Source: an uncultured candidate division Zixibacteria bacterium (GTDB lineage: Bacteria > Zixibacteria > MSB-5A5 > UBA10806). Taken from it: a stretch of 64,000 bases of DNA. Below the pieces are notes generated by a model that had not been told where the DNA came from, searched no databases, and saw nothing but the letters and a program-made list of their open reading frames with translations. The translations under genes and the position numbers were made by a program. The DNA lies in the NCBI GenBank assembly GCA_963817915.1, contig CAWFQL010000003.1:57414-121413 (forward strand). Reading direction: 5' to 3'. Below, one piece after another: positions 576-30,973 of this stretch (positions within the stretch are counted from its first letter, which is position 1; the number at the start of each line of letters is the position of its first letter).

Positions 576-912
576 TCAGAATGTCAACCCCGATGGCTCG
601 CTGGGCGATATAGCGATAGGAATCGATGGGCCGGACGCGAATATTCCAAATCAGTTTGAGCTATCGCAAAATTATCCCAATCCATTCAACGCCTCGACTA
701 TGATTCGCTATTATCTGCCTAAAACATCGGATGTCAAAATCGGTATCTATGATCAGCTTGGCCGCTTGGTCGCCGAATTTTCATCCGCAAGCGAGAACGC
801 CGGATATCACAGCGTCACATGGAATGCGTCAGAACTCGCGTCAGGAATTTACTTCTATAAAATAAATGCAGGTGATTATAGTGATACCAAACGAATGGTG
901 TTGCTGAAATAA
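571..912 (+). pseudogene. Orphan 3' fragment of a gene for a T9SS-secreted protein (C-terminal sorting domain only), apparently truncated by the IS insertion
   Basis: The frame is open from the IS right end: ...NVNPDGSLGDIAIGIDGPDANIPNQFELSQNYPNPFNASTMIRYYLPK...GIYFYKINAGDYSDTKRMVLLK*. This is the canonical Por/T9SS C-terminal domain, also seen intact at 27.3 kb and 44.6 kb. No upstream body or start codon is present. Confidence 0.65.
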
Positions 913-913
913 A

Positions 914-1024
914 GTAGGGCGGAACCCCCGCGGTTCCGCCAAAATGCCGCAAAAAAAGTCCGAACCACTGGGGTTCGGACTACCATAAATATTTCCGTAG
1001 GGGCTCAAAATTTTGAGCCCCTAC
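914..1024. repeat. Three consecutive GTAG-type REP-like hairpins (a BIME-like cluster)
   Basis: gtagggcggaac-ccccgcgg-ttccgcc (914-940). gtccgaacc-actgg-ggttcggactac (958-983), which on the other strand is GTAG+hairpin. gtaggggctcaaaattttgagcccctac (997-1024). Copies of each module recur at 18.1-19.4 kb and 28.87 kb. Confidence 0.7.
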
Positions 1025-1027
1025 AAT

Positions 1028-1237
1028 TTATTCCTTCACTACTAGCACATGTATCGCCTTGACGATTAATTTAACATTATCGCCTTTTTTGAGTCCGAGC
1101 TCATCGAGCGAATCGACCGTCATTACAGAGCCCATAACTGATTTGGCGGGGATTTCGAGCTTGACCTGCCCCATGATATCGCCCTTTTTAATCTCAACCA
1201 CTTTTCCAATTAATTGATTTCTCGCGCCGTATTTCAT
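1028..1237 (-). CDS. Molbindin / TOBE (Mop) domain protein, 69 aa
   Basis: Small single-domain protein whose pattern (GKVVEIKKGDIMGQVKLEI...VKLIVKA) matches the Mop/TOBE molybdate-binding fold. Confidence 0.5.
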   Translation of the reverse strand: MKYGARNQLIGKVVEIKKGDIMGQVKLEIPAKSVMGSVMTVDSLDELGLKKGDNVKLIVKAIHVLVVKE

Positions 1238-1261
1238 AATGTCCTCCGTTTGAAATTTTAT

Positions 1262-1350
1262 TGCGTGTCACAGTTTACTGTGACCGCAATCCATCTTGTC
1301 GCGGTCAAAGCTTATCCGCCGCTTGTCTGGCACGCAAGCATTGACTCGCG
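1262..1350. repeat. ~70-90-nt nested-hairpin element (family F), copy 1 of 3
   Basis: gcgtgtc-acag-TTTA-ctgt-gaccgcaa...gcggtcaaagc...gacacgcaa. Other copies at 28793-28860 and 28918-28990. The inner stem shows compensatory changes between copies (gtcacag/ctgtgac versus gtcgcag/ctgcgac). Confidence 0.6.
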
Positions 1351-1376
1351 ACTAAATTATTTTGGTTTTATAATTT

Positions 1377-2084
1377 TTAGTCTATCAATCTCGCAATGAA
1401 GAAAGCCGCGGCCGATGCCAATCCGCCGATAAGCATTGTCTGAAACGCACCTCGAAATGGGTTAAGCCCCGTGAATCTTCCCTTAATATAACCGAATACA
1501 AAGAGCGCCGTCAGTGTAACGCCGATAGAAACATATAGCGCGGTCGTCAAATTTCTGAGCACAATATATGATGCCAGCGGAACAAGACCTCCGATGATAT
1601 ATGACATCGCGATAGTAAATGCGCTGCGAGCGGCGCGTTTGGGATCCGGCGCTTCGAGGCCGAGCTCGAAACGCATCATGAAATCAACCCACCGTTTGGG
1701 CTCGGCGCAAATAGCTTCAACTACCGGAGCCATCTGTTCTTCATTCATGCCGTAGCCTCTGAAGACATCGGCGACTTCTTCGATTTCGCGATCGCGAAGT
1801 TTTTCGATTTCCAGGTATTCTCTGGCCTCCTCGGATTTATAATGCTCCATATCGGTCTTCGCGGCCAGATATCCGCCCAGCCCCATCGCTATCGATCCCG
1901 CCGCTATTTCAGCAAATCCCGCTGTTACAACAATCCCTGTCGGATTGGGACTGGCTGCCACCGCTCCGGTCAGGCCGGCCGCCAGAGCGAACGGCACAGT
2001 CAATCCATCGGACATCCCTATGACTATATCGCGAACAGTCGCGCTTGCCATAAAATGAGATTCAATATGTGGTGCCGCCGGCAT
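1377..2084 (-). CDS. VIT1/CCC1-family iron/manganese transporter
   Basis: 235 aa, with an N-terminal cytosolic ferritin-like region followed by TM helices (MSDGLTVPFALAAGLTGA, GLGGYLAAKTD). The architecture and motifs are those of the VIT family. Confidence 0.6.
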   Translation of the reverse strand: MPAAPHIESHFMASATVRDIVIGMSDGLTVPFALAAGLTGAVAASPNPTGIVVTAGFAEIAAGSIAMGLGGYLAAKTDMEHYKSEEAREYLEIEKLRDREIEEVADVFRGYGMNEEQMAPVVEAICAEPKRWVDFMMRFELGLEAPDPKRAARSAFTIAMSYIIGGLVPLASYIVLRNLTTALYVSIGVTLTALFVFGYIKGRFTGLNPFRGAFQTMLIGGLASAAAFFIARLID

Positions 2085-2104
2085 GATTCGCTCCTTTTAT
2101 TCTT

Positions 2105-2200
2105 TATACAACAGTAGGACAGGAGTCGCAGACTCCTGCCAAAACCACGTTTCTACAATGGCAGGAGTGTTCCACTCCTGCCCTACAAAATTGTGCCGCA
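2105..2200. repeat. REP-like hairpins (caggagt...actcctgcc family)
   Basis: gtaggacaggagtcgcagactcctgcc and ggcaggagtgttccactcctgccctac. A related copy is at 6662-6690. Confidence 0.55.
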
Positions 2201-2218
2201 TATACAGTATTTCTAATC

Positions 2219-3628
2219 TCATAATTTGGCCAACGCCTTCAATATCGCGTCCGTGATCGGATCGAAATGTTTCTTGACCAGATGGCCGCCGGGAAGCTGA
2301 ATACAATCGACCATGGTCGTATCGAGGTCCTTATCCCTGCAGATTACGTCGTCGTCATCCGCTCCATAGAAGCAAAGAATTTTTATCCCTTTGAGCCTTT
2401 TAAATTCGGGCTTGGTAGGAGTCGATTTATCGCTGGGTGAATTACCGAACCAATTGGACACGTGGAATTCAAAATCTGCTTCATGCGCGGGGCCGATGAG
2501 TGCTATCAATTTTATTTTATCTTTTAAATCTGCCGGAAGACGATTTACCATGAATGGCAATACGTCGGCCCCCATAGAATAACCGATTAATATTATTTTC
2601 TCCTTTTTCCAGGCTGTCGAATAATACGACAAAACCCTGCCCAGATCTAACGACGCCTCTTCAGGTGTCTTCTTATGCCAGAAATATTTCAGCGAATTCC
2701 ATCCGATAACAGAAATCCCGCTATCGGCCAGTGAATTCGAGATCCCCTTGTCGGTCACTCCCCAGCCGCCATCGCCTGTGATATGAACTGCCATGACGTT
2801 TTTAGTCGTATCATCCGCGATCACCTCTACCAATGGCAGGTCTTTCACCGCGACATCTTCCACCGGTGGCGGTGTAATCTGCTGAGTGAATGTTACCTTC
2901 TTGTAGGCTTCCTTAAATTGCGGCATCCAATTTCGCTCGACTGAAAAACCATGCCCGACCTTGGGCAATTGAATGATCTCGCCGTTTTTCACCTGCCCTA
3001 CAAATTTATCGGTTTCAGCGGGATCGCAGACTTGATCTATATCTCCCTGCAACGCTACCCATGGCACTTCCAGAGATTTCGCCGGCAAAAAACTGTACCC
3101 CTTCCCTTTGGGGCCGGCAGTCCATTCGAGACCAATACCGGGACAGAATTGCTTAGTCACCGGCAAGTCGGGGCAGAAACCCAGACTGATGGCGCCTTTG
3201 AATGTGTTAGTCGGAGCCTGGACAAGCGAGGCATATACTAAAGTCGCGCCCGATGAATACCCGACGAGGATCGGTGTCACATAATTTGGAAATTTGTAAT
3301 TCTCCTGCACGAATTTACTCAATATCTCGAAATCCCCGGCCGGATATGAGCATTTCTCCGATGATTTATCGAGCTCGCCGAGATAATGAGTGATATTAAC
3401 TCCAACGACCATGGCGTCGAGCGATGACAGCGAACGAGCCATATCGACTACTCCAAGATTCCAGCCGCCATCGCCTGATACAAAAAGTACTAAATTCGAC
3501 GGAGTGGGGTTATTGTAATAGGTATAAATATTGCCGAATCGTCCGAATTTCAATGTATCCTCGGTCGCGAGTGATAAATTGAATAAAATAATCGTAGTTA
3601 GTGAAATCAGCAGACATATCTTTTTCAT
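2219..3628 (-). CDS. AcvB/VirJ-family two-domain alpha/beta hydrolase, a putative aminoacyl-phosphatidylglycerol hydrolase. Secreted or periplasmic.
   Basis: Signal peptide MKKICLLISLTTIILFNLSLA; the probable start is the internal Met at 3628, while the ORF extends to 3670. Two tandem alpha/beta-hydrolase-like halves (HITGDGGWGVTDK...; LVGYSSGATL; ILIGYSMGADV), as in Agrobacterium AcvB and Pseudomonas PA0919. It sits next to MprF-like genes. Confidence 0.6.
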   Translation of the reverse strand: MKKICLLISLTTIILFNLSLATEDTLKFGRFGNIYTYYNNPTPSNLVLFVSGDGGWNLGVVDMARSLSSLDAMVVGVNITHYLGELDKSSEKCSYPAGDFEILSKFVQENYKFPNYVTPILVGYSSGATLVYASLVQAPTNTFKGAISLGFCPDLPVTKQFCPGIGLEWTAGPKGKGYSFLPAKSLEVPWVALQGDIDQVCDPAETDKFVGQVKNGEIIQLPKVGHGFSVERNWMPQFKEAYKKVTFTQQITPPPVEDVAVKDLPLVEVIADDTTKNVMAVHITGDGGWGVTDKGISNSLADSGISVIGWNSLKYFWHKKTPEEASLDLGRVLSYYSTAWKKEKIILIGYSMGADVLPFMVNRLPADLKDKIKLIALIGPAHEADFEFHVSNWFGNSPSDKSTPTKPEFKRLKGIKILCFYGADDDDVICRDKDLDTTMVDCIQLPGGHLVKKHFDPITDAILKALAKL

Positions 3629-3671
3629 TTTGGTCACGCCCCCGTATAAATTGAATTGCAAAAAATACAAA

Positions 3672-4727
3672 TCACACTTCTATTTTACGCTTCAAAAGCT
3701 TCGATATCTCCAATCGAATATCTTTTAATTTCATCCCCGTCTCCGATATCGCCCATAACCCCAATATCCAAAGCGGAATTGTCAGAATAATAAACACTAC
3801 TATCGAAAAGCCGGTTGCAGTTGTTTTATCGATTCCGAAAATAGTCAATCCCACAACGCAGAAAAATTGATAGGAACCGATATTCGATGGAGCGTTGGGG
3901 ATGGCAGTCCCGAGATGCACAATCATCATCACCGCAGCCCCGGCCCATAGCGAGACTTCAAGACCATAAGCCCTCATTACCAGCCAGAACGCCAGGATTT
4001 GGAATATCAATACAAATGCCGAGGCTATCAATGCGAAATAAAAATCACTTTTTAGCCCTATCTGCTTGATACCCGCGGCGATTTTTGAAATAAACCCAAT
4101 CGCTCTCTTTAATATTCCGGCCTTTCCAATGACTGCTGATTTGTTTTGTGCCAGCTCGCGTTGCTTTCTGAACACAAGGTAAATAAAAAGAATCACTGCC
4201 AAAATTACGACTATCCCCAAAATGTCGGCGGCCTTCAAGAGATTTTTCGGGAGCTCGACAAACAGCGCGGTCAATCCGATTCCAAATGCCAGCCAGATTC
4301 CGTCATGAAACCGCTCGATCACCATCGATGGCACAATCGAAAGTATGTCCTTTGACATCCAGCGCGAAACCAGATAGGCACGGACGAGCTCGCCTGCCCG
4401 CAATGGTATTATCTCATTAGTAAAAAGTCCGGCATAGATCGCCTGAGTTGTTTTGATTGTTGATATTTCCCCGAGTGGTTTCATTAAAATCCGCCATCGA
4501 AGTCCCTGGCTCAAATAGCTGAAAATATCAAAAAACACAGCCAGTATTATCAAGCTCCATTGGATATTCGGTATCTGAGAAAATAACCGTTCAACATGAA
4601 TATCATGAAAAACCCACACCAGACATGCGGCGGCGAAAAGATATCCTAATATCTGTTTTAGACGATAATTTTTGGATGATGAAGGCCTATCTCTATCAAT
4701 GGCGGAGGATGATTCGTCATTTTTCAT
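3672..4727 (-). CDS. Lysylphosphatidylglycerol-synthase TM-region (flippase-like, UPF0104) membrane protein
   Basis: 351 aa, polytopic membrane protein, with a basic N-terminus followed by ~8 TM helices. It has the MprF N-terminal flippase-domain architecture and is adjacent to a synthase-type MprF. Confidence 0.5.
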   Translation of the reverse strand: MKNDESSSAIDRDRPSSSKNYRLKQILGYLFAAACLVWVFHDIHVERLFSQIPNIQWSLIILAVFFDIFSYLSQGLRWRILMKPLGEISTIKTTQAIYAGLFTNEIIPLRAGELVRAYLVSRWMSKDILSIVPSMVIERFHDGIWLAFGIGLTALFVELPKNLLKAADILGIVVILAVILFIYLVFRKQRELAQNKSAVIGKAGILKRAIGFISKIAAGIKQIGLKSDFYFALIASAFVLIFQILAFWLVMRAYGLEVSLWAGAAVMMIVHLGTAIPNAPSNIGSYQFFCVVGLTIFGIDKTTATGFSIVVFIILTIPLWILGLWAISETGMKLKDIRLEISKLLKRKIEV

Positions 4728-4741
4728 TATATAAATTTCGT

Positions 4742-6599: not shown

Positions 6600-6735
6600 C
6601 TGGGATATCAACTGCGCTTTCCGGTCGCCCGACCCGACATAAAACAATTAGCCCTGCATACCAAAAGTAGGCCAGGAGTTGGAACACTCCTGCTATCAAA
6701 GAGCTGTCGGGTCGCCTGACCCGACAGCTTAGTTC
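6600..6735. repeat. Palindromic repeats (gtcgggtcgcctgacccgac family plus a caggagt hairpin)
   Basis: cggtcgcccgacccgac (6615). gtaggccaggagttggaacactcctgc (6662). ctgtcgggtcgcctgacccgacag (6703-6727). The same 20-bp palindrome recurs at 15.9-16.3 kb, 18.04 kb and 18.23 kb. Confidence 0.7.
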
Positions 6736-6810
6736 GAAATCAAAAAACGCCCTTGGGAAATTCAAGTGCTATCGGGTTGCCTCATCCGACAGGAAATTTC
6801 CGAAAGCATA

Positions 6811-9372
6811 TTATGGTTGCTTGGGAGTGAGCAGAAAATTCAGATTTTCCAATGCCGCATTGGTTTCCGATGGGGTTATTTCCATCTCGATAAACCCCGG
6901 CTCGGAAATATACCCAAATTTTATCAGCTGTTCGGAGTTTATATAAATTTTGTATTTTCCCGGTACCAGCCCCTGATAGTAATACTCGCCATTGCTGAAT
7001 GCTGTCACCTCGCTGACAGCTTCTGTGGCCGTATTCATTATCTCCACCTTGAATCCGCCGACTCCAGTCTTGCCCTGGGCTGCTTCCTTTTCTATAAATC
7101 CGCTGATATCGCTGACCACCACGAGCGGAACCTCGACCCCGGTAACAATATTGGGATCGCATAATATCTTATAATTCTCATGCGCCGGCTTCAGGCTGGG
7201 GTTATCGATACTATTTAAATCTATTTGTACCAAATAATAATCGTATGGCCTCAGGCCTTCATAGTAATACACCTTACCCGATGACGCGGCCTTTTCTCTG
7301 CCGCTAACTATTTTTGCTTTGATACCTGAAATAATTTCTTCGTTTTTGTCCCTGACTCCGTCGAAATCATCATCGCGGAAGGGCTTTATTAACGCCGACC
7401 CGAATCCAACGCCGTTTCTACGGTCGAATCTAATCGCTCCGCCTTCGCTGTCATACCGAACCGAACCTTTCTGCACCTGGCTCATCGATGTTGTACTGCC
7501 CGTAGAAAGAACTCTCGATGTAAAATTAGCGAATCCCGTAAAAAGATTGAAGGTCAACATATAGAGATTAGACTTGGAGCTCTCGTTCCGTTCAAATGAT
7601 AACGACAGCTGGCCTGTCCGAAAAACCCTTCGACCCATTACGATACCATAGCTTGCCATTCTATTCTGCATATGATCGAATACAAACTTGAATTTCGGCT
7701 GTACCCACGGGATTAACGAAGTGGAAAGCAAGGCCTGACTGGTCAAATCCTGCGAAGAGCGATTGGGGAATATCGATATCTTATATCTACCCGAATAACT
7801 GAACTGAAATCTATTAAACGAAAGATTGAATCCGTAATTCATATTGATATTATCGAGATTGCGGAATTTATCCCAATTGACATTATATCGAAATCCCAAA
7901 TATCGCCCGCCTATTTTCAATGGCGCCGAGAATGCCATTTGAACACTATGCTGCTGCCCAAATCTGTTTTGGAATTTACTTTCATAATATTTCGTATATC
8001 CCGCGCTGATATTTAAAATCGAAAGCTTGCTGTAGTTAAGCGCCAGGCCGGCAGATTTATTGGGAGCAAAAGATCCGTTAACCGTGAGATTGCCTCCCAT
8101 CTGGTAGGTGGCGTCAGTCCCGAATGATGGCTTTTCATTGTTTCGCGATTCGATCGGCAGATCGGAGCTGACCCCCAATGTCAATTTATCGCTTATGCCG
8201 TAATATGAAGTAGCCTGAGCGTATTTGCTGTTTTCATCCGGAATTGTAGCTGTGCCCGCGGCTACGGAGTATTCGAAATTATTCTTTGGGACCAGATTAT
8301 ACGGAATTCTGATATATTTTTCCTCCGTTCGTATTTCGCCATTGGGGCCGTACATTTTGAGGGATATTACCGATGCCCCATAGTAAATATCCACATTGAA
8401 ATTGTAATCGCCATTATGATCAGTCGCCTGAAAATCTGTGAGCTTCTGGTCGATATACAATTCGACTTCCCAGCCTTCGCCCAGATGATCCGCGAGATTT
8501 AATGTCTGAAAATATTTTCTCTCGACCTGAGGTTTATTGGTAATCATTCCGCCTTTCAGACCCCTTGAGAAAAGCCCGCTGGTATTGATATTTCCAAGGT
8601 CCGCCTGAGTCAGATAATGATTATCATTGAAAAAGTAATGCCATTTATAAATCATCTGATTGGATTGAATACCCGTGACACTATTGCCGCCGCCGGTCAC
8701 GCTGATATCTCCACCGAGAACAATGCCGCCGGCGTTGAAATCAAAATATTGTCCTCCGCCTCCCAAGGGGCTTGCCGATACCGCCCAATCTACAACTCCG
8801 CCATTAAAAATATCCCGTTTTCGGGGAATTACCTTAACATCCCGCGGCGCCGCGGCCTTGGCCTGAATGCTTTCGTGCTCTAATTTTCGTTTTAATTTTT
8901 GGTACGATGGAAATTCCTTGTTCAATGGGAGATAAACCCGCAAAGCTGAAAATTTGAAATCCATCTTCAAGCCGAAATACTCGTCAAATAGATCAATCCT
9001 CAGATAAAGATCCCGTGAATTCAAATAATAGTCCCATATTCTCAACGGTTTTATCTTGCCGGCGATTTTGGCTTCGGAATTAATCAGGTCAAGTTGATAA
9101 CGCTGATTTGTATTGATGATATAACCCGCGTATCTCAATTTTAGCGAATCATATTCGATATGCAGATCGAGAAGCCCGAATATTTCATTCAACGGCAGAT
9201 AGACCGTAGAGCCGTCATACTGGACAAATAAGTCAGTCCTGATAAGTTGGGGAACATCGAAACCGACAACGATCTCTTCATATGTTTTCTCCTGCGCCAA
9301 CACCAAAGGCGCGGAGAAAAAAAACGATATCAGAACGACCAAGACTAAGTTTCGGTTAATCATTGCAATCAT
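6811..9372 (-). CDS. Outer-membrane fimbrial usher-like protein, last gene of the chaperone-usher pilus operon
   Basis: 853 aa with a signal peptide (MIAMINRNLVLVVLISFFFSAPLVLAQE), a beta-rich central region and C-terminal beta-sandwich-like segments (GFKVEIMNT...GEYYYQGLVPGKYKIYI). Size and operon position (after pilins and chaperone) match ushers. Homology is inferred from architecture and context, not verified by alignment. Confidence 0.55.
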   Translation of the reverse strand: MIAMINRNLVLVVLISFFFSAPLVLAQEKTYEEIVVGFDVPQLIRTDLFVQYDGSTVYLPLNEIFGLLDLHIEYDSLKLRYAGYIINTNQRYQLDLINSEAKIAGKIKPLRIWDYYLNSRDLYLRIDLFDEYFGLKMDFKFSALRVYLPLNKEFPSYQKLKRKLEHESIQAKAAAPRDVKVIPRKRDIFNGGVVDWAVSASPLGGGGQYFDFNAGGIVLGGDISVTGGGNSVTGIQSNQMIYKWHYFFNDNHYLTQADLGNINTSGLFSRGLKGGMITNKPQVERKYFQTLNLADHLGEGWEVELYIDQKLTDFQATDHNGDYNFNVDIYYGASVISLKMYGPNGEIRTEEKYIRIPYNLVPKNNFEYSVAAGTATIPDENSKYAQATSYYGISDKLTLGVSSDLPIESRNNEKPSFGTDATYQMGGNLTVNGSFAPNKSAGLALNYSKLSILNISAGYTKYYESKFQNRFGQQHSVQMAFSAPLKIGGRYLGFRYNVNWDKFRNLDNINMNYGFNLSFNRFQFSYSGRYKISIFPNRSSQDLTSQALLSTSLIPWVQPKFKFVFDHMQNRMASYGIVMGRRVFRTGQLSLSFERNESSKSNLYMLTFNLFTGFANFTSRVLSTGSTTSMSQVQKGSVRYDSEGGAIRFDRRNGVGFGSALIKPFRDDDFDGVRDKNEEIISGIKAKIVSGREKAASSGKVYYYEGLRPYDYYLVQIDLNSIDNPSLKPAHENYKILCDPNIVTGVEVPLVVVSDISGFIEKEAAQGKTGVGGFKVEIMNTATEAVSEVTAFSNGEYYYQGLVPGKYKIYINSEQLIKFGYISEPGFIEMEITPSETNAALENLNFLLTPKQP

Positions 9373-15869: not shown

Positions 15870-15924
15870 ATCATTTGGCCATGCCTCAGGATTGGAGGTT
15901 TTTTTAGACATCCTGAGGCTTTAT

Positions 15925-16400
15925 TAAAGGTGAGGTCGGGTCGCCTGACCCGACCGACATTGAGTCTCACCTAGTGATGTCGAGTCGCAGTACCTGACCA
16001 GAATCTTCTCCCCGATTTTTGTCGATTATTCTATTTTAATTGAATATTAAAAGTGAGGTCGGGTCGCCTGACCCGACCGACATTGAGTCTCACCTAGTGA
16101 TGTCGAGTCGCAGTACCTGACCAGAATCTTCTCCCCGATTTTTGTCGATTATTCTATTTTAATTGAATATTAAAAGTGAGGCCGGGTCGCCTGACCCGAC
16201 CGACATTGAGTCTCACTTAGTGTCGTTGAATCGCAGAACCCGACTAGAATCTTCCCCCCCGATTTATGTCGATTTTTCTATTTTAATTGAATATTAAAAG
16301 TGAGGTCGGGTCGCCTGACCCGACCGACATTGAGTCTCACCTAGTGATGTCGAGTCGCAGTACCTGACCAGAATCTTCTCCCCGATTTTTGTCGATTATT
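15925..16400. repeat. Tandem array: 4 copies of a ~122-bp non-coding unit
   Basis: The unit is (a/g)gtgaggtcgggtcgcctgacccgaccgacattgagtctcacctagtgatgtcgagtcgcagtacctgaccagaatcttctccccgatttttgtcgattattctattttaattgaatattaaa. Copies begin at ~15928, 16052, 16173 and 16297. Copy 3 diverges (ggccggg, cacttagtgtcgttgaatcgcagaacccgactag, ccccccc). Each unit carries the 20-bp gtcgggtc-gcct-gacccgac palindrome. Confidence 0.85.
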
Positions 16401-16496
16401 CTATTTTAATTGAATATCCCAAATTAATATGCTAATATTGCCGGTCTTATAGAAGGTGGTGGGAAGGGGATTAAATCTTAAAAATAGGGGCCAGGC

Positions 16497-18017: not shown

Positions 18018-18034
18018 ATTTTGATTTTGTGTGG

Positions 18035-18255
18035 TCGGGTCGCCTGACCCGACCACAGCTTTGTCATTATCGTAGGGATTTGATTCATCAAACCCCAGAG
18101 CCTGTCATTCCGCACTCGATGCGGAATCTTGCGCGCTCCTAATTGTAGGGCGGAACTCCTGAGTTCCGCCTATTTGTAATCGGCCCAAAAAAGTCCGAAC
18201 CTCGGGGGTTCGGACCTACTAGCTTTTGTGAGGTCAGGTCGCCTGCGACCTGACG
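18035..18255. repeat. BIME-like cluster of about 6 palindromic units
   Basis: gtggtcgggtcgcctgacccgaccac. gtagggatttgattcatcaaacccc. cattccgcactcgatgcggaat. gtagggcggaactcctgagttccgcc. gtccgaacctcgggggttcggacctac. gtgaggtcaggtcgcctgcgacctgacgacc. Confidence 0.7.
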
Positions 18256-18261: not shown

Positions 18262-18885
18262 CTATTTCCGAATCAGCTTTCTAATATCGTCCTGATCGCC
18301 AACCAAAAACGTATGCGGTGTCTTTATCGCTGAATTCAAAAAATGATCATCGCTTTTGAGCTCTTCCCGAAATTCATCGATCGGCAAAATGGTTGGATTG
18401 ATTGTACGGCCCAATAGCTCCTCAGCCTTGCCCACCGCGCTGGCGAATTCGCTGAATTTCAATTTGCCGATAATCGTCAGATCGATATCCTTATGATCCG
18501 TTTCTTCGTCATAGGATGGCAGGCCATCGATATACGCGATCTTGATTTTCTGCTTCATCGGTTTCAACGCCGACTTCAAAATCTCCGCCACACCGAATGT
18601 CTTATACACGATGCCGCGAAGCTCCTTGTAAATCGGGTTGCCCGCGTTGACCGAATAGAATGTCTGCCGCCCGCGGACCTCGGCATTGAGTACTCCGGTC
18701 GAGACCAGCGATTTCAATTCTCTCTGAATCGCTCCCTGACGGGTTCCTGTCGCCCTGGCAACTTCCGAGAAGTAATAATGTTTGTCGCTATTGAGGAAGA
18801 ATAACGACATCACTTTTTTCCTTGTACTGCCGAATAATGATTCAATCATAGCTTGCCTCATAGTCAAATGCCGCTTTAATATCAT
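18262..18885 (-). CDS. Winged-helix (ArsR-like HTH) DNA-binding protein with an uncharacterised C-terminal domain
   Basis: 207 aa. N-terminal HTH pattern FSEVARATGTRQGAIQRELKSLVSTGVL. The C-terminal ~100 aa has no confident assignment. Confidence 0.4.
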   Translation of the reverse strand: MILKRHLTMRQAMIESLFGSTRKKVMSLFFLNSDKHYYFSEVARATGTRQGAIQRELKSLVSTGVLNAEVRGRQTFYSVNAGNPIYKELRGIVYKTFGVAEILKSALKPMKQKIKIAYIDGLPSYDEETDHKDIDLTIIGKLKFSEFASAVGKAEELLGRTINPTILPIDEFREELKSDDHFLNSAIKTPHTFLVGDQDDIRKLIRK

Positions 18886-18944
18886 GCTTACCCATTTCGG
18901 GTATTTTTATACCCAATTTAGGTATTTCCGTCAAGCAGAAGATT

Positions 18945-19355
18945 GCACCTTATTCTGATGTAGTCGTAGGGCGGAACCCCCGTGGTTCCGCCATTCCGAG
19001 TGCGGTCGGGTCTCCGCACCCGACCGAAAACCCCGATATCACCGTAGGGGTTTGATTCATCAAACCCATCTTTGGAAAATCTCAAACATTTCGCAGGGGC
19101 GTTTGAAAAAACGCCCATTTGCTGGGCGGCAGGCGTCCCGCCTGCCCCTTGTATAGAAGGCAAAAAAAGAGTCCGAACCGCGGGGGTTCGGACCTACTGT
19201 AAAACCGTCATTCCGCATCCGTCGGTCGCCGGACTGCAAGGCAGCACCGATGTGGAATCCGCGCGCTCCTAATCGTAGGGCGGAACTCCTGAGTTCCGCC
19301 TATTTGTTTTAGGCAAAAAAAGAGTCCGAACCGCTGGGGTTCGGACCTACCGTAT
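18945..19355. repeat. Dense BIME-like cluster of about 9 GTAG-type palindromic units
   Basis: Units in order: gtagggcggaac-ccccgtgg-ttccgcc. gtcgggtctccgcacccgac. gtaggggtttgattcatcaaaccc. ggggcgtttgaaaaaacgccc. ggcggcaggcgtcccgcctgcccc. gtccgaaccgcgggggttcggacctac. cattccgcatccg...gatgtggaatc. gtagggcggaactcctgagttccgcc. gtccgaaccgctggggttcggacctac. Confidence 0.75.
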
Positions 19356-19381
19356 CGAATGAGTAAATTGGGGGCATGATA

Positions 19382-21637
19382 TCAACTGTCAAATCTCTGC
19401 TTAATGTATTCCTGTGTCTGCTTCGCTGTTAGTTCTGTAGTGGAGGGGCCGGTTCGAATGTAAAACCTTTCAATATCTCCGTCTTTTACAAACTCTGCCT
19501 TAGTCGCCCTACCGCATTTAATGATCATCACTCTGCTATCATCGTAATCTTCAAAGTGAACATGAATTTGGGTCATAGCCAGTGGCCCTATTCTGCTCTT
19601 GACTATATTAACTAAATGCAAGCTCATCTTATCTTCATCGGGGAATCCATCCGCTTTAATATCCGCCGAACCGCCATCATCGTGCACACCAATAATCAAA
19701 GTGCCCCCGTTTGTATTGAGGAATCCTGCGATTGTCTTTAGCATTGATAGTTCAATCCGCTGGTCAGGGCTCCCAGTATGCAGATTTGTTCTTAAGGTCG
19801 CCTTGAATTCGACAGCTTCGGATTCGCCGTTTTCTATTATTTGGCTCAAATCTAGTTCTTTTAATTTAGTGTCCAGGTTTATATCTGCGACTAGTGTTTC
19901 ATACCCTTCACGAATAATTTCAGCCATCAGTTCGCGTCTTTTGACCAGGAAATCATTATATTCTAAGTGTTCCCAGTTTTCGGGTAGCGCGTGCCAATGA
20001 TACATTTCAGATAGTTCATTGTGACCAAATCTAGAATTGAATTCGGCTAAATATTCGGCGGGTGGTTGTATAGAAATTTTTGCATTATCACCCCATTCTA
20101 CGTAGGAGTAATTTGCAATTTGATTGGTTTCTCGAATACCCTTAATATTGATTTCCTTTAGATATTCCTTCGGAAATAGATGATGTCTTTCGACTGCTGA
20201 ACGATTTCCTTGCATTGCCGGGTCAAACAAATCAGCTACTTTGATTTTTGAAAATAACGCTCGAGCGTCTAGAAGTACAAGTGCGGCTTCAAAAGCAAAC
20301 AATGAGGGGCTTCGTGAAGAGGATGTAGCCAAATCGTTTGGCAAAGTGACAATCCAGTAGTCAGATGTTAGAGTAATTTCGCAAATGCTTTCAAGTATCC
20401 GGATGAACTGATCGCCCTCTTTTATTTCCCTGAACCGCGCAAGATCAAACTCCATAGCTGATTCCGGAGAGCCAGTGAACCGGCCGGTGACGCTGGACAT
20501 AAAGAACCAGCGGGCAATAACTCGCCGAAGCTTGAATTCATTTATGCAGTATTCCGTGCGGCCGATCAAGTAAAGAATGTATGAGAATAATAAGTTGTTT
20601 TGGGAACTGATCATCTTACCGCTTCTGAAACCGGCCTGCCTGATACAATTCATGAAATCATGCCAATACTGCAAGTTCAGAACACGACTTTGGGCTTTCT
20701 TTAGAACGTCAAATTGCGCATTCCTTCGCTCTTCGCTAAATTGCTCAGTCTCAAGGTCCTTACCCCGAAGGATAGAATATACATATTGTAGGCGGGCTCG
20801 CTTAAACGCAACTCCGACACTAACTCGGAGGAGCTGATCAGGGCCTGGTTCTATAAAATAGTTGAACGGAGAAGCATCAACCTTTGAGGGTCGCTTGGAA
20901 GCCAGACAAAACTTCTCAAGTTCCTTGCGCCCATCGTCCCAAAATACAGACATTAGAGTCAGAATAAAGTCCGCCTGGTTCAGAGGCGTTCCTTTACTAT
21001 TGATGCGCACAAAGACATCTGAAACATTTTCTTCAGAGATGTTCGGAGCCAATTCAAGAGCGGTGAAAGGAAAGCTCAAAAGTCCATTAAGTTTGGTGAT
21101 AGTCCTCTGAATTCTCCTTTTCTCGTCATCTTCGATTTCTCTGGATTCACTCAATCCAGCTAGGTATTTTTCGACTACTTCAAAGAGATCCGTTTTTTTG
21201 TTCCATAATAAAGAGATATCAGGTATAAATGTTTTATCGCGACGTATCGCGGCGTCGGCAACCTCAAACTTTTCTTCAAGCGGATTGAAGGCTATATATA
21301 TTTGTTCCTTTTCATAATTCTCTCTTATTACAGGAATGCCTTTTACAACAGCATAAAGCGAAGTCAGCCGCTGCTGACCATCAACTATGACAAGGCGTGG
21401 CGATTTTTGTTTATTCTCAGCTCCAATAGTGCGCGAGTCTGCCGCCAAACCGTTTTGCCAAAACAAAAAATATCCCACTGGATACCCTCGATACATCGAA
21501 TCGAAAAGATCCCTAATTTTGGCGTTCTTCCAGACAAACGGTCGCTGAATATCAGGTAAACCAATTTCGCCGAGGGCTATATATTCCATTAGCTTGGATA
21601 AGTCGTAGTCGACCTTTGCGAATAGGGTATCACTCAT
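19382..21637 (-). CDS. GmrSD-like type IV restriction protein (DUF262 + DUF1524) fused to a C-terminal AlbA_2/Schlafen-like domain
   Basis: 751 aa. N-terminal DUF262/ParB-like motif LVIVDGQQRLTSL. Middle His-Me/HNH-like DUF1524 motif (ERHHLFPKEYLK). C-terminal ~150 aa has GESEAVEFKATL...KTIAGFLNTNGGTLIIGVHDDG, a close match to the AlbA_2 (Schlafen-type) signature. GC is visibly lower than in neighbouring genes. Confidence 0.7.
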   Translation of the reverse strand: MSDTLFAKVDYDLSKLMEYIALGEIGLPDIQRPFVWKNAKIRDLFDSMYRGYPVGYFLFWQNGLAADSRTIGAENKQKSPRLVIVDGQQRLTSLYAVVKGIPVIRENYEKEQIYIAFNPLEEKFEVADAAIRRDKTFIPDISLLWNKKTDLFEVVEKYLAGLSESREIEDDEKRRIQRTITKLNGLLSFPFTALELAPNISEENVSDVFVRINSKGTPLNQADFILTLMSVFWDDGRKELEKFCLASKRPSKVDASPFNYFIEPGPDQLLRVSVGVAFKRARLQYVYSILRGKDLETEQFSEERRNAQFDVLKKAQSRVLNLQYWHDFMNCIRQAGFRSGKMISSQNNLLFSYILYLIGRTEYCINEFKLRRVIARWFFMSSVTGRFTGSPESAMEFDLARFREIKEGDQFIRILESICEITLTSDYWIVTLPNDLATSSSRSPSLFAFEAALVLLDARALFSKIKVADLFDPAMQGNRSAVERHHLFPKEYLKEINIKGIRETNQIANYSYVEWGDNAKISIQPPAEYLAEFNSRFGHNELSEMYHWHALPENWEHLEYNDFLVKRRELMAEIIREGYETLVADINLDTKLKELDLSQIIENGESEAVEFKATLRTNLHTGSPDQRIELSMLKTIAGFLNTNGGTLIIGVHDDGGSADIKADGFPDEDKMSLHLVNIVKSRIGPLAMTQIHVHFEDYDDSRVMIIKCGRATKAEFVKDGDIERFYIRTGPSTTELTAKQTQEYIKQRFDS

Positions 21638-21884: not shown

Positions 21885-22075
21885 GTTGTCGGGCCGCCCA
21901 ACCCGACGCCACTAATATGTCATGTCTTTAATTTTTTCCTGCGAGTCACAGTCTATCCGCCAGTGGCGGAGCTTGCCGTGACTGCATCCAATTTTGGTTT
22001 GCGATCAGGGTAAACCCTGACGCGCAGCAATTCCATTTTTTCGTAGAGACGCAAAATCTTGCGTCTCTACATAGT
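21885..22075. repeat. Palindromic repeats flanking the right side of the defence gene
   Basis: gtcgggccgcccaacccgac (variant of the 20-bp palindrome). A gtcacag...cgtgactgc inverted repeat. A perfect GTAG hairpin gtagagacgcaaaatcttgcgtctctac at 22046-22073. Confidence 0.6.
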
Positions 22076-22081
22076 GAATTA

Positions 22082-23501: not shown

Positions 23502-23512
23502 CGATTACTTTC

Positions 23513-24373: not shown

Positions 24374-24388
24374 TCTTTTGATGTCAAA

Positions 24389-25891: not shown

Positions 25892-27532
25892 TTGACCTTT
25901 GGCGCGGGAGGATTACTGACCAAATTAGCGTTTGCCATAACTATCAGCTTAATTATTAATTTCAATGTCTTTGCCCAAGTGGATACATCCTGGGTTCGGG
26001 CATATAATCAGTTTGAAGGCGGAACAGATTGTCCAGTTGCAATTGATGTCGATAATGCCGGAAACGTATATGTGACTGGGGCTAGCCGTGCGGCTACGGG
26101 AGGCGCCAATTTTAATACAATTAAATATAATTCTAATGGAGATACTTCCTGGTTACGGTCATATGGTGGTGGTGGAAATTATGATGATAGTCCCGTGGCA
26201 TTAAAAGTTGATGCTGTGGGTAATGTATATGTGGCTGGGTTTGTCGTATATTACCCTGGAGGGTATGATTATATAATAATCAAATATCTTTCTAATGGCG
26301 ATATCGACTGGATAAGACCATACGAAAATGGAAACATCTACGGTGTTGGTCAATCACTTGTTTTGGGGGGATCTGGAAACATATATTTAACTGGATATGC
26401 AACGGAACCCCATGACAATTGGGATTTGCTGTTAATCAAATATAGGCCTGATGGTGACACTGCTTGGATCAGATCATATAATGGTCCTGCTAATGGCTAT
26501 GAGGCTGGGCAATCAATGTGCGTTGATAATAATGAAAATATAATTATCACCGGCATTATCCAAGATTCACTGACGAGATTTGCCGATATCTTAACAGTTA
26601 AATTTGATTCTTCGGGAAATCAGCTATGGGCCGCAAGGTATAATGGTGCAACGGATTTCTACGATAGCGGCAGATATATTGCGGTCGATAGAGACGGTGC
26701 AGTGTATGTCGCCGCCATTAGCCCTCAGTACAATTCCAACGATGATATCCTCTTGATAAAATATAATGCCGATGGCGATACTGTCTGGACCCGCTTATAT
26801 GATGGGTCTGCACATATGGGTGATTTTGTCACTGGTCTGGGAATAGACTATGAGGGAAATATAATTATTTCCGGACTATTCATGGACGGGTCGCACGAAG
26901 CTTATGACGGAAAGATTATCACGCTGAAATATGATTCTGAAGGAAATATTATCTGGCAGCGCATTTACGGTGAGACTCGTTTGACTTATCCTATTCCTTC
27001 AAGTATGTGTCTTGACGCTGCCGGCAATATTTATATTACCGGCAAAACAGGTCAAGGGCTGCTTGCATTAAAATATTATTCTAATGGCGATTCCGCATGG
27101 TCATGGACTTACATCCCCCACTCATATGGCGGGGCCATTGTCGTCGACGCATTTTCGAATGTTTATTTAACCGGACGCACCTCCGAGTTAGAAGGACAAT
27201 CGCATTACTTAACAATCAAGCTTGTACAAACTGCTTTGGGAACAGATGATTATACAGTTATTTCCAATATCGATTACAATCTCAATTCCAATTACCCCAA
27301 CCCCTTTAATCCATCGACTACTATCAAGTATTCTCTCTCTCAACAATCAAATATTTGTTTATCAGTCTATAATCTGCTAGGCCAAAAGGTAGCAACTTTA
27401 TTTGATGGAAGCGCAGAGGCGGGGGAATACAGTTTAATCTGGAATGCCCGCGATATGCCGTCGGGCATATACTTTGCAAGACTGACAGCCGCTGGCAAAA
27501 CAAGCAACATTAAAATGGTACTAATGAAATAG
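25892..27532 (+). CDS. T9SS-secreted beta-propeller (SBBP-repeat) protein
   Basis: 546 aa with signal peptide. Repeated GN(V/I)Y(V/L)TG / DxxGNxxWxxxY modules (SBBP-type), then the Por C-terminal sorting domain NYPNPFNPSTTIKYSL...GIYFARLTAAGKTSNIKMVLMK. The gene and its upstream spacer are AT-rich. Confidence 0.75.
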   Translation: MTFGAGGLLTKLAFAITISLIINFNVFAQVDTSWVRAYNQFEGGTDCPVAIDVDNAGNVYVTGASRAATGGANFNTIKYNSNGDTSWLRSYGGGGNYDDSPVALKVDAVGNVYVAGFVVYYPGGYDYIIIKYLSNGDIDWIRPYENGNIYGVGQSLVLGGSGNIYLTGYATEPHDNWDLLLIKYRPDGDTAWIRSYNGPANGYEAGQSMCVDNNENIIITGIIQDSLTRFADILTVKFDSSGNQLWAARYNGATDFYDSGRYIAVDRDGAVYVAAISPQYNSNDDILLIKYNADGDTVWTRLYDGSAHMGDFVTGLGIDYEGNIIISGLFMDGSHEAYDGKIITLKYDSEGNIIWQRIYGETRLTYPIPSSMCLDAAGNIYITGKTGQGLLALKYYSNGDSAWSWTYIPHSYGGAIVVDAFSNVYLTGRTSELEGQSHYLTIKLVQTALGTDDYTVISNIDYNLNSNYPNPFNPSTTIKYSLSQQSNICLSVYNLLGQKVATLFDGSAEAGEYSLIWNARDMPSGIYFARLTAAGKTSNIKMVLMK

Positions 27533-27710
27533 CATTTGGCATAATTTGCGCTATTGTTTGCCCAACCCGAAAAATTGTACTTATCAATTAGAAAATCTTC
27601 GGCGTGTTTTTATATCTAGTCATGATTAGCCCAATATATTAGAGCGTTTCCACTCATTGTTTAATGCATAATAAAATTCCGCGGTTAATATCCCTTGACA
27701 TCTCATCATA

Positions 27711-28779
27711 TTGCAGGCATTTTCATCAATAAATTTGGGGGTATATTTAATGGCGAATCCGAAAAACATATCTAACCTGCTGGCGTTCAGAATGGCGTCG
27801 CATACGCTTCGCAATATGATAACCAAAAAGCCGATCTGCATAGCGTTGGAAGTAACCCACAACTGCACCGCCAACTGCCGCCATTGCGATAAGGGACCGA
27901 AAGTCGATGACCATGCGGTCGGGGCGTTAGAATATAAAAAGATTTGCGATGAGCTGTCGCCATCGATGATTCAAATCGCCGGTGGGGAGCCGTTGAAACG
28001 GGCCGAACTGCCCGAAATAGTCAGGGCATTATACAATCCCGATAAAATCCCGTTTCTGGTCGTAGTCACCAACGCGTCCTTATTGACCAAAGAAAAATAT
28101 CTCGAACTGCGCGAGGCTGGGATAAAGCAATTCTCGATCTCGCTCGATTTCCCCGATAGCCGCCACGATGATTTCCGCCGAATTCCCGGACTGTTTGACC
28201 ATTTGAATAAATTGATACCGGAATTAATCGCCATGGGCAATGGCGATGTTACAGTCAATACCTGCATCACGAGGGTTAATTATCCCTATCTCATGGATAT
28301 AATCAAGAAAGTGGCATCATGGGAGGCCAAGCTCAATTTCTCGGCCTATACCGATTTACGCACTCATGACGAGCAATACAATTTGAGGCATCCCGAAGAC
28401 ACGGTCACAATTCGACAAAATTATCGATCAGATATATTCCGATGAGACAGCGGCAAGTTGTGTGATGACATCGCAAAAGGTCATGCGTCGTTTCAATAGA
28501 TTCTATAAAGAGAAATGCTATATCCCCAATTGCCAGACCGGATACAAATTTCTGATTGTCAATCCCGATGGCACCCTGACGCCTTGCGCCATGTTCATCA
28601 AGGATCGTTATAAGAGCCAGAAGGAATTGATCGAAAAATTCGTCAAAAAGACCGATTGCGGGGGATGCTATATCTCGATCCGCGCCAATACCGAAAAATC
28701 ACTGTGGGAACTCTTAACCGATAATCTGCGTGCCTACAAACTCGGCCTGAAAAGCGCCGCGAAATATGGGACAAGGTGA
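27711..28779 (+). pseudogene. Radical SAM / SPASM-domain protein split by a frameshift into 27711-28445 and 28462-28779
   Basis: The first ORF carries the CxxxCxxC cluster (HNCTANCRHCDKG). The second ORF has a Cys-rich SPASM-like tail (CYIPNCQTGY...PCAMF...CGGCYIS). The second frame is open upstream back to ~28405 (…FDKIIDQIYSDETAASCV…), so a single +/-1 shift near 28400-28445 separates the halves. Combined length ~350 aa fits anSME/PqqE-like maturases. Confidence 0.6.
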
Positions 28780-28792
28780 TTTTGCTGTCTGC

Positions 28793-29098
28793 TGCGTGTC
28801 GCAGTTTACTGCGACCGCAAGCCATGCATCAGCGGTCAAAGCAAGCTTTGACACGCAACGAAAGTTTTCCGTAGTGGCTCAAAATTTTGAGCCCTCTTAT
28901 GCAGTAGTGGTTTGTTTTGCCGCGTGTCACAGTTTACTGTGACCGCAAACCATGAATCAAACGGTCAAAGCAAGCTTTGACACAAAAGGAAATCATTTTC
29001 TTCTTATCATTCCGCACCCACCACAGCGGGTCTAAATCGGCTTGATGCGGAATCTAGCCTTGAAATAACTCGCAAGATTCCTGCTTTCGCAGGAATGA
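28793..29098. repeat. Repeat cluster: two family-F structured elements plus GTAG, cattccgca and cctgctttcgcagg hairpins
   Basis: Family F copies at 28793-28860 and 28918-28990. gtagtggctcaaaattttgagccctc. tcattccgcaccc...gatgcggaatc. attcctgctttcgcaggaat. Confidence 0.7.
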
Positions 29099-29101
29099 CA
29101 A

Positions 29102-30580
29102 TCACTCCCCGGAATCGTATTCCTTCTTCGCTTGTTGCGCTAATCTATATAATTCCCAGTACGGCGGGCGATAGCCGTTGGTAGTCTGAAATTGATCGGC
29201 GAGCTGAAGGACGCGCGCTTTGATTTTCGCGTGCATCGATGATAGGTACTTATTCCGCAAGGCGCTTTCGGCATTCATGCCTTCGGGTACCGGGCCGATC
29301 TTATTGAATCGATTCAATATCCAGCAATAGAGCTTCATCACTCTGCCAACCGGCAATAGGAAACTATTGTATTTCAATCGTTCGCCTTTGTCCGCGCCTT
29401 CCAGCAAGGCATCGATAACCGCATTGTCGACATGATCCTTATATAACGTTTCGATATCGCGCCATTCTGCCACAACCTTGACCTGCGGATCGTATTCCAA
29501 ATCCGATGGCGCCTGCGTATCGAAGTGAGTCACCCCGAATGCCGCAAGCCACGAGACCACACCCGGCGATGATATATGTGTCAGCTTCGACCACAATGTT
29601 ATGCCCGCCTTTTTATATGGATCATAGACCACCTCAGAACAGAACATTTTTTTATCATCATTGGAATCCATAGCGAAATCGTAGGGGATATGCCTGTTTT
29701 TGGCATCGTCCAGCATCGCTTTTGCGACTTTATGAGGAAGCATCGGATCGGCCTTTAATTGGGGCAAATCATGCCGAAGCCTAAGCACCATTACACGGAG
29801 CTTTTTGTCATTGAGATAATCCTGCAATGACGCTATCGCGACACCTTTTTCAATATGCGATTCGATTATCGAGGCGATACTTGTCGCCGAATCCACATAG
29901 ACCAAGGCGGCATGCGAGAAATTGCCTTGAAAATTATTTCCTCTGGCAATCAAAGCCGATGTTGGCGCGCCGCCCCGCGATATCAAAATATCGCCGCTGT
30001 GGATTGTCACGCCCAATATGCGAGTGAAGGGTGTCGCCGATGGTTCATCCGAACATTGCAGTAATGGCGCTAGCGAATCCGGAGACCGTTGAAGCATGAT
30101 CTCTTCCAGTGCCGCCCTGGCCCCGTATAGCAGACGATAAATCGATATTTGCGCCGCGGTCGAACTCATGTCCCAATTCAATGATTGCGTTTTGATCACA
30201 TTTCTGAGCCTGACTACGAATGATTGATAATCATTAAAATGCTCCGGAAACGCCCCAATCATCACTGCCGACGAAAAAGCATTTTCTTCAAGCCGTGTAA
30301 ATAACGGTGAATCTGCCGTCGCGTTAAAAGTTGAAATGGAATCAAGTAAACTGTTTCCGTTATTCAGGCTCCAGATAATCGTCGGCGCCAATTTCTCTGA
30401 TCCGATCGATTTGCATTTCAGGAATTGCTTTTCGAGCTCTTGCCAACGGTCATCTTGCTTCCATTCGAATGGCTGTTTTTCGCTGCCCTTTTCAATTACT
30501 GTTTCAGGGATGGGGATCAACAGGACAAGATATAATAGAGCCAAAGAGATTAGGCCGATTTTTGCGATTTTCCGAATCAC
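29102..30580 (-). CDS. Hypothetical signal-anchored protein (492 aa). Possibly a permuted papain-fold hydrolase, which is very tentative.
   Basis: N-terminal TM or signal sequence (IAKIGLISLALLYLVLLIPI). Conserved-looking H (NFSHAALVYVD) and C (FCSEVVYDPY) residues in an order reminiscent of the YiiX/permuted-papain families. No firm family assignment is possible. Confidence 0.25.
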   Translation of the reverse strand: MIRKIAKIGLISLALLYLVLLIPIPETVIEKGSEKQPFEWKQDDRWQELEKQFLKCKSIGSEKLAPTIIWSLNNGNSLLDSISTFNATADSPLFTRLEENAFSSAVMIGAFPEHFNDYQSFVVRLRNVIKTQSLNWDMSSTAAQISIYRLLYGARAALEEIMLQRSPDSLAPLLQCSDEPSATPFTRILGVTIHSGDILISRGGAPTSALIARGNNFQGNFSHAALVYVDSATSIASIIESHIEKGVAIASLQDYLNDKKLRVMVLRLRHDLPQLKADPMLPHKVAKAMLDDAKNRHIPYDFAMDSNDDKKMFCSEVVYDPYKKAGITLWSKLTHISSPGVVSWLAAFGVTHFDTQAPSDLEYDPQVKVVAEWRDIETLYKDHVDNAVIDALLEGADKGERLKYNSFLLPVGRVMKLYCWILNRFNKIGPVPEGMNAESALRNKYLSSMHAKIKARVLQLADQFQTTNGYRPPYWELYRLAQQAKKEYDSGE

Positions 30581-30973
30581 GCAATATCATATATAATGAA
30601 TTCAATTCAGACAAGCGAATATCTGATATCGACCCGAAGGTAATTTTGAAATACAAGTTTAAGCAAATTAGAGGGTTAAGTCAGTTCGTAGTCCCGACAT
30701 GAAATGTCGGGCGTGAACTGACTTTTTGGGAGCGCAAATAGGCGGCAGGTCACGTCCGGCGGCTGCCGGACTACGACTTGCCGCAACGGAAAAATCTATC
30801 CTGACAAGCGAATATCCGGTTTTGACTTGAGGGCAATTTTCTCCATACAATTTCAAATGAAAACCAAACCATAAGACGTCTCTATTTAAAGGCTTTCCGA
30901 TTTTATTGAATAATTTATGCGATCAGGTGTATTGCTATTCTGAAATATAAAATTTTATGAAGGGAGTTTTACA

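Follow-up and report, generated by a model that had tools for sequence, protein, structure and literature searches.

The question raised by this locus is whether the short palindromes crowding its intergenic gaps are genuine repetitive extragenic palindromes (REPs) of the kind mobilized by REP-associated tyrosine transposases (RAYTs), and whether the transposase encoded beside them has any part in their movement. The locus is a stretch of 64,000 nucleotides from an uncultured candidate division Zixibacteria bacterium (assembly GCA_963817915.1, contig CAWFQL010000003.1), referred to here as the window, which carries many hairpins tagged with the tetranucleotide GTAG and one gene for a Y1 transposase, TnpA. 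REP and RAYT systems have been characterized almost wholly in Proteobacteria. Our analysis demonstrated that the intergenic gaps in the first 31 kb of the window hold genuine clusters of the known REP and bacterial interspersed mosaic element (BIME) kind, here in an uncultured member of the Zixibacteria. We interpret the GTAG hairpin families, named A, B, C, D, E and Y, as REPs of the GTAG superfamily with a RAYT elsewhere in the genome as their probable mobilizer, and assign this reading a probability of about 0.8.

GTAG hairpins and their paired architecture

The window was searched for perfect stems of at least 8 bp enclosing loops of 3-12 nt, the regions singled out in a preliminary description of the sequence were also read directly, and 30 dinucleotide-preserving shuffles of the window served as the null model. 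The search returned 44 perfect hairpins in comparison to 10.4 ± 2.9 in the shuffles, and 13 of the 44 bore a tag, GTAG at the foot on the 5' side or CTAC on the 3' side, an arrangement found 0.17 times (maximum 1) in the shuffled sequences. Altogether 39 hairpin units were catalogued between 914 and 30774, all of them intergenic with none inside an open reading frame (ORF), and 18 of the 39 were GTAG-tagged (four each of A and B, three each of C and E, two each of D and Y). These GTAG-type units are 24-28 nt long with stems of 8-12 bp, and each family is present in two to four copies in the window. The GTAG is unpaired and lies 5' of a stem of 8-10 bp in families A, B, D, E and Y, and lies within the stem in family C. 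A GTAG (or a close variant) at the foot, a palindrome of 20-40 bp with a stem of 6-13 bp repeated outside genes and an arrangement in inverted dimers identify GTAG REPs, and all three were found here.

Family A (GTAG-GGCGGAAC(C)..(G)GTTCCGCC) is on the plus strand at all four of its positions (914, 18145, 18966 and 19275), and family B (GTAG-GTCCGAACC..GGTTCGGAC; 958-983, 18193-18219, 19171-19197 and 19324-19350) always has its GTAG on the minus strand. Family C comprises palindromes with GTAG/CTAC inside the stem (997-1024 and 22043-22070, with a degenerate copy at 28871), family D reads GTAGGG(G/A)TTTGAttcaTCAAACCC (18072 and 19044), family E GTAGG(A/G/C)CAGGAGT.. (2114, 2160-2186 and 6667) and family Y GTAGTCC.. 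(30688 and 30741-30774). The remaining units lack GTAG. Family F, (C/T)GTC-ATTCC(G/T)(C/G)(A/C)..GGAAT, is found at 18103, 19206, 29005 and 29076; family G, the GTCGGGTC family (GTCGGGTCgcctGACCCGAC and variants), has 11 units that are untagged, with a GTGNG lead or no lead, four of them inside a tandem array of four 123-bp repeats at 15922-16417. Family H is a repeat of ~65 nt with two hairpins (1263-1337, 28794-28858 and 28922-28983) and has neither a GTAG nor a CGTC tag; the stem change from CACAG/CTGTG to CGCAG/CTGCG between its copies is compensatory. Three hairpins, X1-X3 (19093-19116, 19128-19146 and 21943-21985), were left unclassified. This catalogue confirmed the clustered, mosaic placement of hairpin modules given in the preliminary description, the modules lying where it had placed them. 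Its statement that most modules begin or end with GTAG was too strong, about half of the units being tagged in this way. The cattccgca family (F) carries CGTC, TGTC or TATC and not GTAG, and the description had passed over both family H and the array at 15922-16417.

Units A and B form head-to-head pairs with GTAG facing outward at 914-983, 18145-18219 and 19275-19350, separated by a partly conserved A/T-rich spacer of 17-23 nt, and A3 and B3 make up a fourth A/B pair with other modules between them. The pairs E1+E2 and Y1+Y2 have the same build, again with GTAG outward, and spacers across the pair types measure 17-27 nt. The arms of the A+B pairs fold separately in prediction, at -21 to -23 kcal/mol with z scores of -5.3 to -6.4, and the z scores over the folded A+B and E1+E2 pairs together range from -5.3 to -6.8. 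Two positions in the stem distinguish A from B, and because both differences are compensated by changes on the opposite arm we regard them as two related REP types, a relationship resembling that of the Y and Z REPs in Escherichia coli BIMEs. A composite block consisting of an F 3' arm, the linker GCGCGCTCCTAAT, A, the spacer and B occurs at 18106-18219 and again at 19240-19350 with ~90% identity, and this duplicated F-A-B block is a higher-order, BIME-like organization. On the minus strand, a T run (CTTTTTTTGC or TTTTTTGCGG) follows B in three cases out of four, and on the plus strand ATTTGT follows A in two out of four; a simple terminator scan therefore flags A/B units in both directions.

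These features are those expected from earlier surveys. The GTAG and CGTC REP superfamilies occur in eight phyla with several families per genome; REPs form head-to-head heterodimers, are reiterated in clusters together with flanking DNA and prefer gaps between convergent or same-strand genes, and the cognate GTAG REP flanks RAYT genes, and no transposase is known for CGTC REPs (Di Nocera et al. 2013, PMC3733652). For E. coli TnpA-REP to bind and cleave its target, no base of the GTAG can be dispensed with (Messing et al. 2012, PMC3479197). With the Y/Z REPs and TnpA-REP of E. coli, the REPINs of Pseudomonas and the SMAGs of Stenotrophomonas, the GTAG units of the window share the unpaired 5' GTAG, a GC-rich stem of 8-10 bp with a short loop, intergenic location, several families per genome, higher-order clusters and head-to-head pairs of two related hairpins at 17-27 nt spacing. 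The bracketing of a RAYT by its cognate REP with GTAG outward is a further shared feature, seen here in relatives. Unlike the known GTAG systems, those described here have a Zixibacteria host, and their stems differ from those of the proteobacterial families.

Judged by its tag, stem and loop, module F is predicted to belong to the CGTC REP superfamily, which includes dRS3 of Neisseria (Di Nocera 2013). That superfamily is marked by a terminal CGTC (or TGTC/CCTC), a stem of 8-9 bp starting with AT and a loop of 4-5 nt. Module F shares with it the CGTC/TGTC tag and an 8-bp stem starting with AT (ATTCCGCA or ATTCCTGC), and the loop is 4-5 nt in F1 (TGTC-ATTCCGCA-ctcga-TGCGGAAT) and F4, as in CGTC REPs. 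Unlike these, whose tail is CCA, the module F copies end in CTT, CCG, CTA and CTT, two of the four carry loop inserts of 33-38 nt, and four is the whole complement of the window. Units of the form CGTC-ATTCC..GGAAT-CCA, similar to module F, were found in six fetched loci, with CCA tails in L103, L134 and L144.

Linkage of modules A and B to RAYT genes

Loci fetched from other genomes and metagenomes are numbered L001-L180, and RAYT genes in them were called with NCBIfam model NF047646 at a cutoff of 80 bits. Five independent Zixibacteria-like contigs, L172/L149, L171, L175 (GCA_964267595.1), L176 and L178, carry a true RAYT gene with exact B units on its flanks and GTAG pointing outward; the last three were retrieved through RAYT homologues and show the arrangement B-RAYT-B. 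A metagenome scan for module B matched 53 contigs, chiefly from sediment and freshwater assemblies, where B often pairs with GTAGGTCGGAAC..GTTCCGAC, and three of the module-B metagenome contigs carry RAYTs (135.2, 135.9 and 91.8 bits), each lying between B units whose GTAG points outward. The organism-named homologues of the B-linked RAYT are all from Zixibacteria, and this cognate RAYT represents a clade of ~167-aa proteins that are ~36-37% identical to betaproteobacterial RAYTs. The RAYTs of L174 and L177 have other GTAG-tagged flanks. Of these, the Zixibacteria RAYT of L174 (9890-10590) lies between inverted repeats of ~48 nt starting with GTAG (GTAGGTCACGCCGACTCGCC..) in place of short REP hairpins, resembling the 'TIR-associated' (terminal inverted repeat) tyrosine transposases of Di Nocera et al.

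The exact stem and tag of module A (GTAGGGCGGAAC..GTTCCGCC) were found at no fewer than 120 loci in a scan of one genome per species, in comparison to ~8 expected by chance according to a rough calculation with 20 specified bases in 596 Gb. Among those listed, the matches were labelled as Vicinamibacterales, other Acidobacteriota, Gallionella, Burkholderiales, Chromatiaceae, Methylococcaceae, Competibacteraceae, Alphaproteobacteria, Ignavibacteriales, Zixibacteria and several others. Loops were lineage-specific, and an inverted partner ending in ..CCCTAC was usually present. In two betaproteobacterial genomes (L055 and L068) RAYTs scoring 193.6 and 195.4 bits are bracketed by A-type REPs (GTAGGGCGGAAC/GTAGGGCGGAAG/GTAGGGTGGAAC). 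The preliminary description had proposed REP/BIME-like palindromes of the GTAG type recognized by RAYTs and had suggested looking for a RAYT-type Y1 gene between inverted REPs; module B and the A-type REPs provide exactly such genes in other genomes, which supports the proposal.

As a separate observation, several genomes labelled 'uncultured Bifidobacteriaceae' with a GC content of 67-70% (L010, L013, L015, L017, L033, L035, L065, L096, L109 and L117) carry GTAGGGCGGAACTTCAGTTCCGCC in a form identical, including the loop, to that of Vicinamibacterales genomes, and the labels of these bins look doubtful.

Of the available relatives, L180 and L179 stand closest to the window locus. C-like units occur in L180, one of them immediately behind the M32 peptidase gene, and modules A and B are both missing from L179; there is therefore turnover of REPs among related lineages. 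Downstream of its M32 gene L179 has a ~200-bp element (8634-8840) with inverted ends of ~20 nt (GGCCCCGCGGCGGCATGTTT..AAACATGCCGCCGCGGGGCC), which looks like a different miniature inverted-repeat element at the position taken by REPs in the window. In L001-L178, no copy of modules C, D, G or H was found except for one G-like match, and modules G, C and E had no matches when viral contigs were scanned for them.

Competing explanations and the IS200 of the window

According to the interpretation proposed here, the GTAG hairpins would be non-autonomous elements acting as single-stranded DNA, many of them head-to-head heterodimers like REPINs or BIMEs. The enzyme at work would be a RAYT of the HUH/Y1 type with a single gene elsewhere in the genome of the window, this gene being bracketed in turn by the REPs that its product mobilizes. 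It would bind hairpin and 5' GTAG jointly and would cut and rejoin the single strand, allowing units to spread or rearrange. Settled units would then lie chiefly downstream of genes, where a pair with its A/T-rich spacer may behave as a two-way terminator or as a stabilizer of mRNA 3' ends, and families G and H would be further palindromic repeat families lodging in the same gaps as the REPs.

A number of observations weigh against this interpretation. The 64 kb contain no RAYT gene or pseudogene and no Y1 gene apart from the IS200 described below (phmmer and tblastn), module A was not seen beside a RAYT in any Zixibacteria contig, and modules C, D, E and Y were seen beside none, with only the C-like units of L180 and two E-like matches in all 180 loci. 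Modules are also absent from every one of the 10 gaps of at least 60 bp in the region 31-64 kb (3.5 kb in total) in comparison to 10 of 17 such gaps occupied in the region 1-31 kb (Fisher p = 0.003). To our knowledge, RAYT-driven REP transposition has never been directly observed in vivo in any organism.

A chimeric assembly was considered as the cause of the module-free second half and was rejected. GC content is flat across the window, both halves share GC and tetranucleotide signature, and tetranucleotide correlations between the halves match those within each half, except for the chunk containing a 216-bp repeat. Since composition is the same in both halves, a chimeric contig does not explain the contrast in module content.

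The missing RAYT could also be read as a loss, in which case the hairpins would be true GTAG REPs whose transposase has disappeared from the lineage, leaving inert, decaying copies that are kept only as terminators. Degenerate units (C2, Gx0 and Gx1) and the large loop insertions of F2 and F3 would fit such decay, and REPtron loss is documented in many E. coli strains (PMC3733652). This alternative must accommodate A and B copies that are nearly perfect, an F-A-B block whose two copies are 90% identical and hence point to recent duplication, and RAYTs of the B-linked clade that are common in Zixibacteria. RAYTs are normally single-copy. Their absence from 64 kb of a multi-Mb genome is therefore to be expected, and we regard the loss of the RAYT as unlikely.

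Considerably less probable is that the units are ordinary intrinsic terminators or regulatory stem-loops that owe their similarity to local duplication and do not move. Many units are terminator-like with T-rich tails, and in nine of the 10 occupied gaps the units follow the 3' end of a gene (three convergent and six same-strand, with one divergent). Hairpins in the module-free half are conventional stems of terminator type with T runs (those at 33053, 44513, 53095 and 54638, for example). A terminator, by comparison, has no use for a conserved unpaired GTAG, and local duplication does not account for the same 26-27-nt units at unlinked loci of the window, on the 53 metagenome contigs and at the 120 or more reference-genome loci. 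Against this reading, too, units directly flank RAYT genes, and Y1/Y2 occupy a divergent promoter gap.

The last candidate for a mobilizer is the TnpA of the window itself (86-514), which the preliminary description had placed in the Y1 HuH superfamily while leaving open whether it is a RAYT or an IS200 transposase. Its placement in the superfamily was correct, and the open question can be answered in favour of IS200: the protein scored 111.6 bits with the IS200/IS605 equivalog NF033573 (cutoff 55) and 98.3 bits with Pfam Y1_Tnp, in comparison to 25 bits with the RAYT model, whose cutoff is 80. The motif HLHML provides the HUH signature (HLH) and the C-terminal IRNYVEFQ the tyrosine. In our alignment, the RAYTs share HxH and the block WQxRYWDHIIRD..DYIHYNPVKHG, and TnpA has neither that block, expected of RAYTs in the form WQxRFW(D/E)H..Y(I/V)HxNPV, nor the C-terminal extension. 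The insertion sequence occupies approximately 20-570 on the plus strand, with tnpA as its only gene and no tnpB, and its subterminal hairpins (CACGGCTTTAGCCGTG at 36-51 and CCCGGCTTTAGCCGGG at 549-564; CGGCTTTAGCCG) occur at these two positions only and are unlike every module. The element shares with the IS200/IS605 family its profile, HUH and tyrosine motifs and hairpins at both ends, and it is an ordinary, self-contained IS200 unrelated to the REP modules. The suggestion that the modules are miniature derivatives of this IS200 moved by its TnpA, attractive in that a HUH/Y1 enzyme acting on single-stranded subterminal hairpins uses the same chemistry as RAYTs, is scarcely credible in view of the end hairpins, the RAYT-model score and the missing C-terminal block, and of modules linked in relatives to RAYTs and not to IS200. 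In the region 1-912 the IS200 has apparently landed in a gene whose product bears a C-terminal sorting domain for type IX secretion; this domain is encoded in the 3' part of the gene, where the frame is open at 538-912. The insertion would then be recent and gene-disrupting.

Cluster map, neighbouring genes and significance

The first cluster opens with the heterodimer of A1 (914-940, plus strand; GTAG-GGCGGAACC..GGTTCCGCC) and B1 (958-983, GTAG on the minus strand; GTCCGAACC..GGTTCGGA-CTAC), arranged head to head over 914-983 with an A-rich spacer of 17 nt and with arms that fold separately at -22.9 kcal/mol (z = -5.3). It continues with C1 (997-1024), a perfect palindrome of 28 nt (GTAGGGGCTCAAAATTTTGAGCCCCTAC) whose stem includes GTAG/CTAC, and H1 follows at 1263-1337 on the plus strand, combining GTCACAG-TTTA-CTGTGAC with GTCAAAGC..TTTGAC, the second hairpin having a 24-nt insertion. 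The head-to-head dimer E1+E2 (2114-2186; z = -6.8) consists of GTAGGACAGGAGTC..GACTCCTGCC, a 19-nt spacer and GGCAGGAGTG..CACTCCTGCC-CTAC. The cluster at 6621-6792 contains a degenerate G (6621-6638), E3 (GTAGGCCAGGAGT.., 6667-6693), G1 (AGCTGTCGGGTCgcctGACCCGACAGCT, 6702-6729) and a second degenerate G (6769-6792).

The tandem array of four 123-bp units (15922-16417, plus strand; 92% matches) has one G hairpin (GGTCGGGTCgcctGACCCGACC) per unit, at 15934, 16057, 16180 and 16304, each nested within a larger GTGAG..CTCAC stem. It lies directly upstream of the M32 carboxypeptidase gene, and the orthologous gap in L179 is 250 bp long and lacks the array. The organism-named homologues of the M32 peptidase are all from Zixibacteria; beyond a 100% match, the next best is 73% identical, in agreement with the origin of the window in a Zixibacteria metagenome-assembled genome.

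Two mosaic clusters follow. The first (18030-18254) consists of G6 (18030-18057), D1 (GTAGGGATTTGAttcaTCAAACCCC, 18072-18096), F1 (TGTC-ATTCCGCA..TGCGGAAT, 18103-18128), A2 (18145-18170), B2 (18193-18219) and G7 (18232-18254). The second (18966-19350) consists of A3 (18966-18992), G8 (19003-19026), D2 (19044-19067), X1 (19093-19116), X2 (19128-19146), B3 (19171-19197), F2 (19206-19260; CGTC-ATTCCGCA with a 38-nt loop insert), A4 (19275-19300) and B4 (19324-19350). At 21885-22070 are found G9 (21885-21910), X3 (an imperfect long hairpin, 21943-21985) and C3 (GTAGAGACGCAAaatcTTGCGTCTCTAC, 22043-22070). The cluster at 28794-29100 comprises H2 (28794-28858), the degenerate C2 (28871-28894), H3 (28922-28983), F3 (29005-29054; TATC-ATTCCGCA..TGCGGAAT with a long loop) and F4 (29076-29100, minus strand; TGTC-ATTCCTGC-gaaa-GCAGGAAT). 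The last units are the head-to-head pair Y1+Y2 in the divergent promoter gap (30688-30774), where Y1 is GTAGTCCCGACATgaaATGTCGGG and Y2 ends in ..GCCGGACTAC, which reads GTAGTCCGGC.. on the minus strand. Against CRISPR-like or riboswitch readings, the hairpin units are not separated by unique spacers, and Rfam at gathering thresholds matched no family in the whole window; no tRNA or tmRNA genes were found in it.

The genes beside the clusters are mostly housekeeping genes, including those for VIT1, an MprF-like lysyl-phosphatidylglycerol synthase, the M32 peptidase, AhpC and GcvT, and neither GC nor tetranucleotide content shifts at the clusters, so that the coincidence of clusters with gene-island boundaries that had been reported for this sequence found no support. 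The region 18262-21637, bracketed by the three richest REP clusters and likewise without compositional signs of an island, encodes a 207-aa ORF with a weak DUF7342 match and a 751-aa protein with GmrSD N-terminal and Schlafen/AlbA_2 domains that is likely a defence nuclease. In the module-free half, 36116-40670 is a 216/432-bp tandem repeat of ~15 copies (70-73% matches). Its translation, spread over five consecutive plus-strand ORFs in different frames, contains repeated motifs of the CxxCH type (CTQCH and CYSCH, for example); this looks like a giant multihaem cytochrome gene split by frameshifts, or a misassembly across the repeats.

In summary, the elements described here are of a kind already known, represented here by GTAG REPs and a RAYT clade from Zixibacteria, by CGTC-type REPs and by two further palindrome families; our literature search found no paper that joins Zixibacteria with REPs. 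RAYTs have been found across many bacterial classes, and the REP-associated groups were argued to be vertically inherited (Bertels et al. 2017, PMC5581495). As the stem and tag of module A are common to many phyla, REP-RAYT systems may have spread between phyla and not by vertical inheritance only. Similarly, the nesting of GTAG, CGTC, G and H elements and the duplicated F-A-B block could mean that several palindrome families, each with a different mechanism, insert preferentially into existing REP clusters. Either proposal is possible, if still rather doubtful.

A dense landscape of several REP families in a candidate phylum that metagenomes alone have revealed indicates a wider host range for these elements. 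Such repeats fragment metagenome assemblies and are prone to mis-annotation, and setting the IS200 apart from the REP system avoids a wrong functional link between the two. Module B and the Zixibacteria clade of ~167-aa RAYTs constitute a concrete substrate-enzyme pair for biochemistry.

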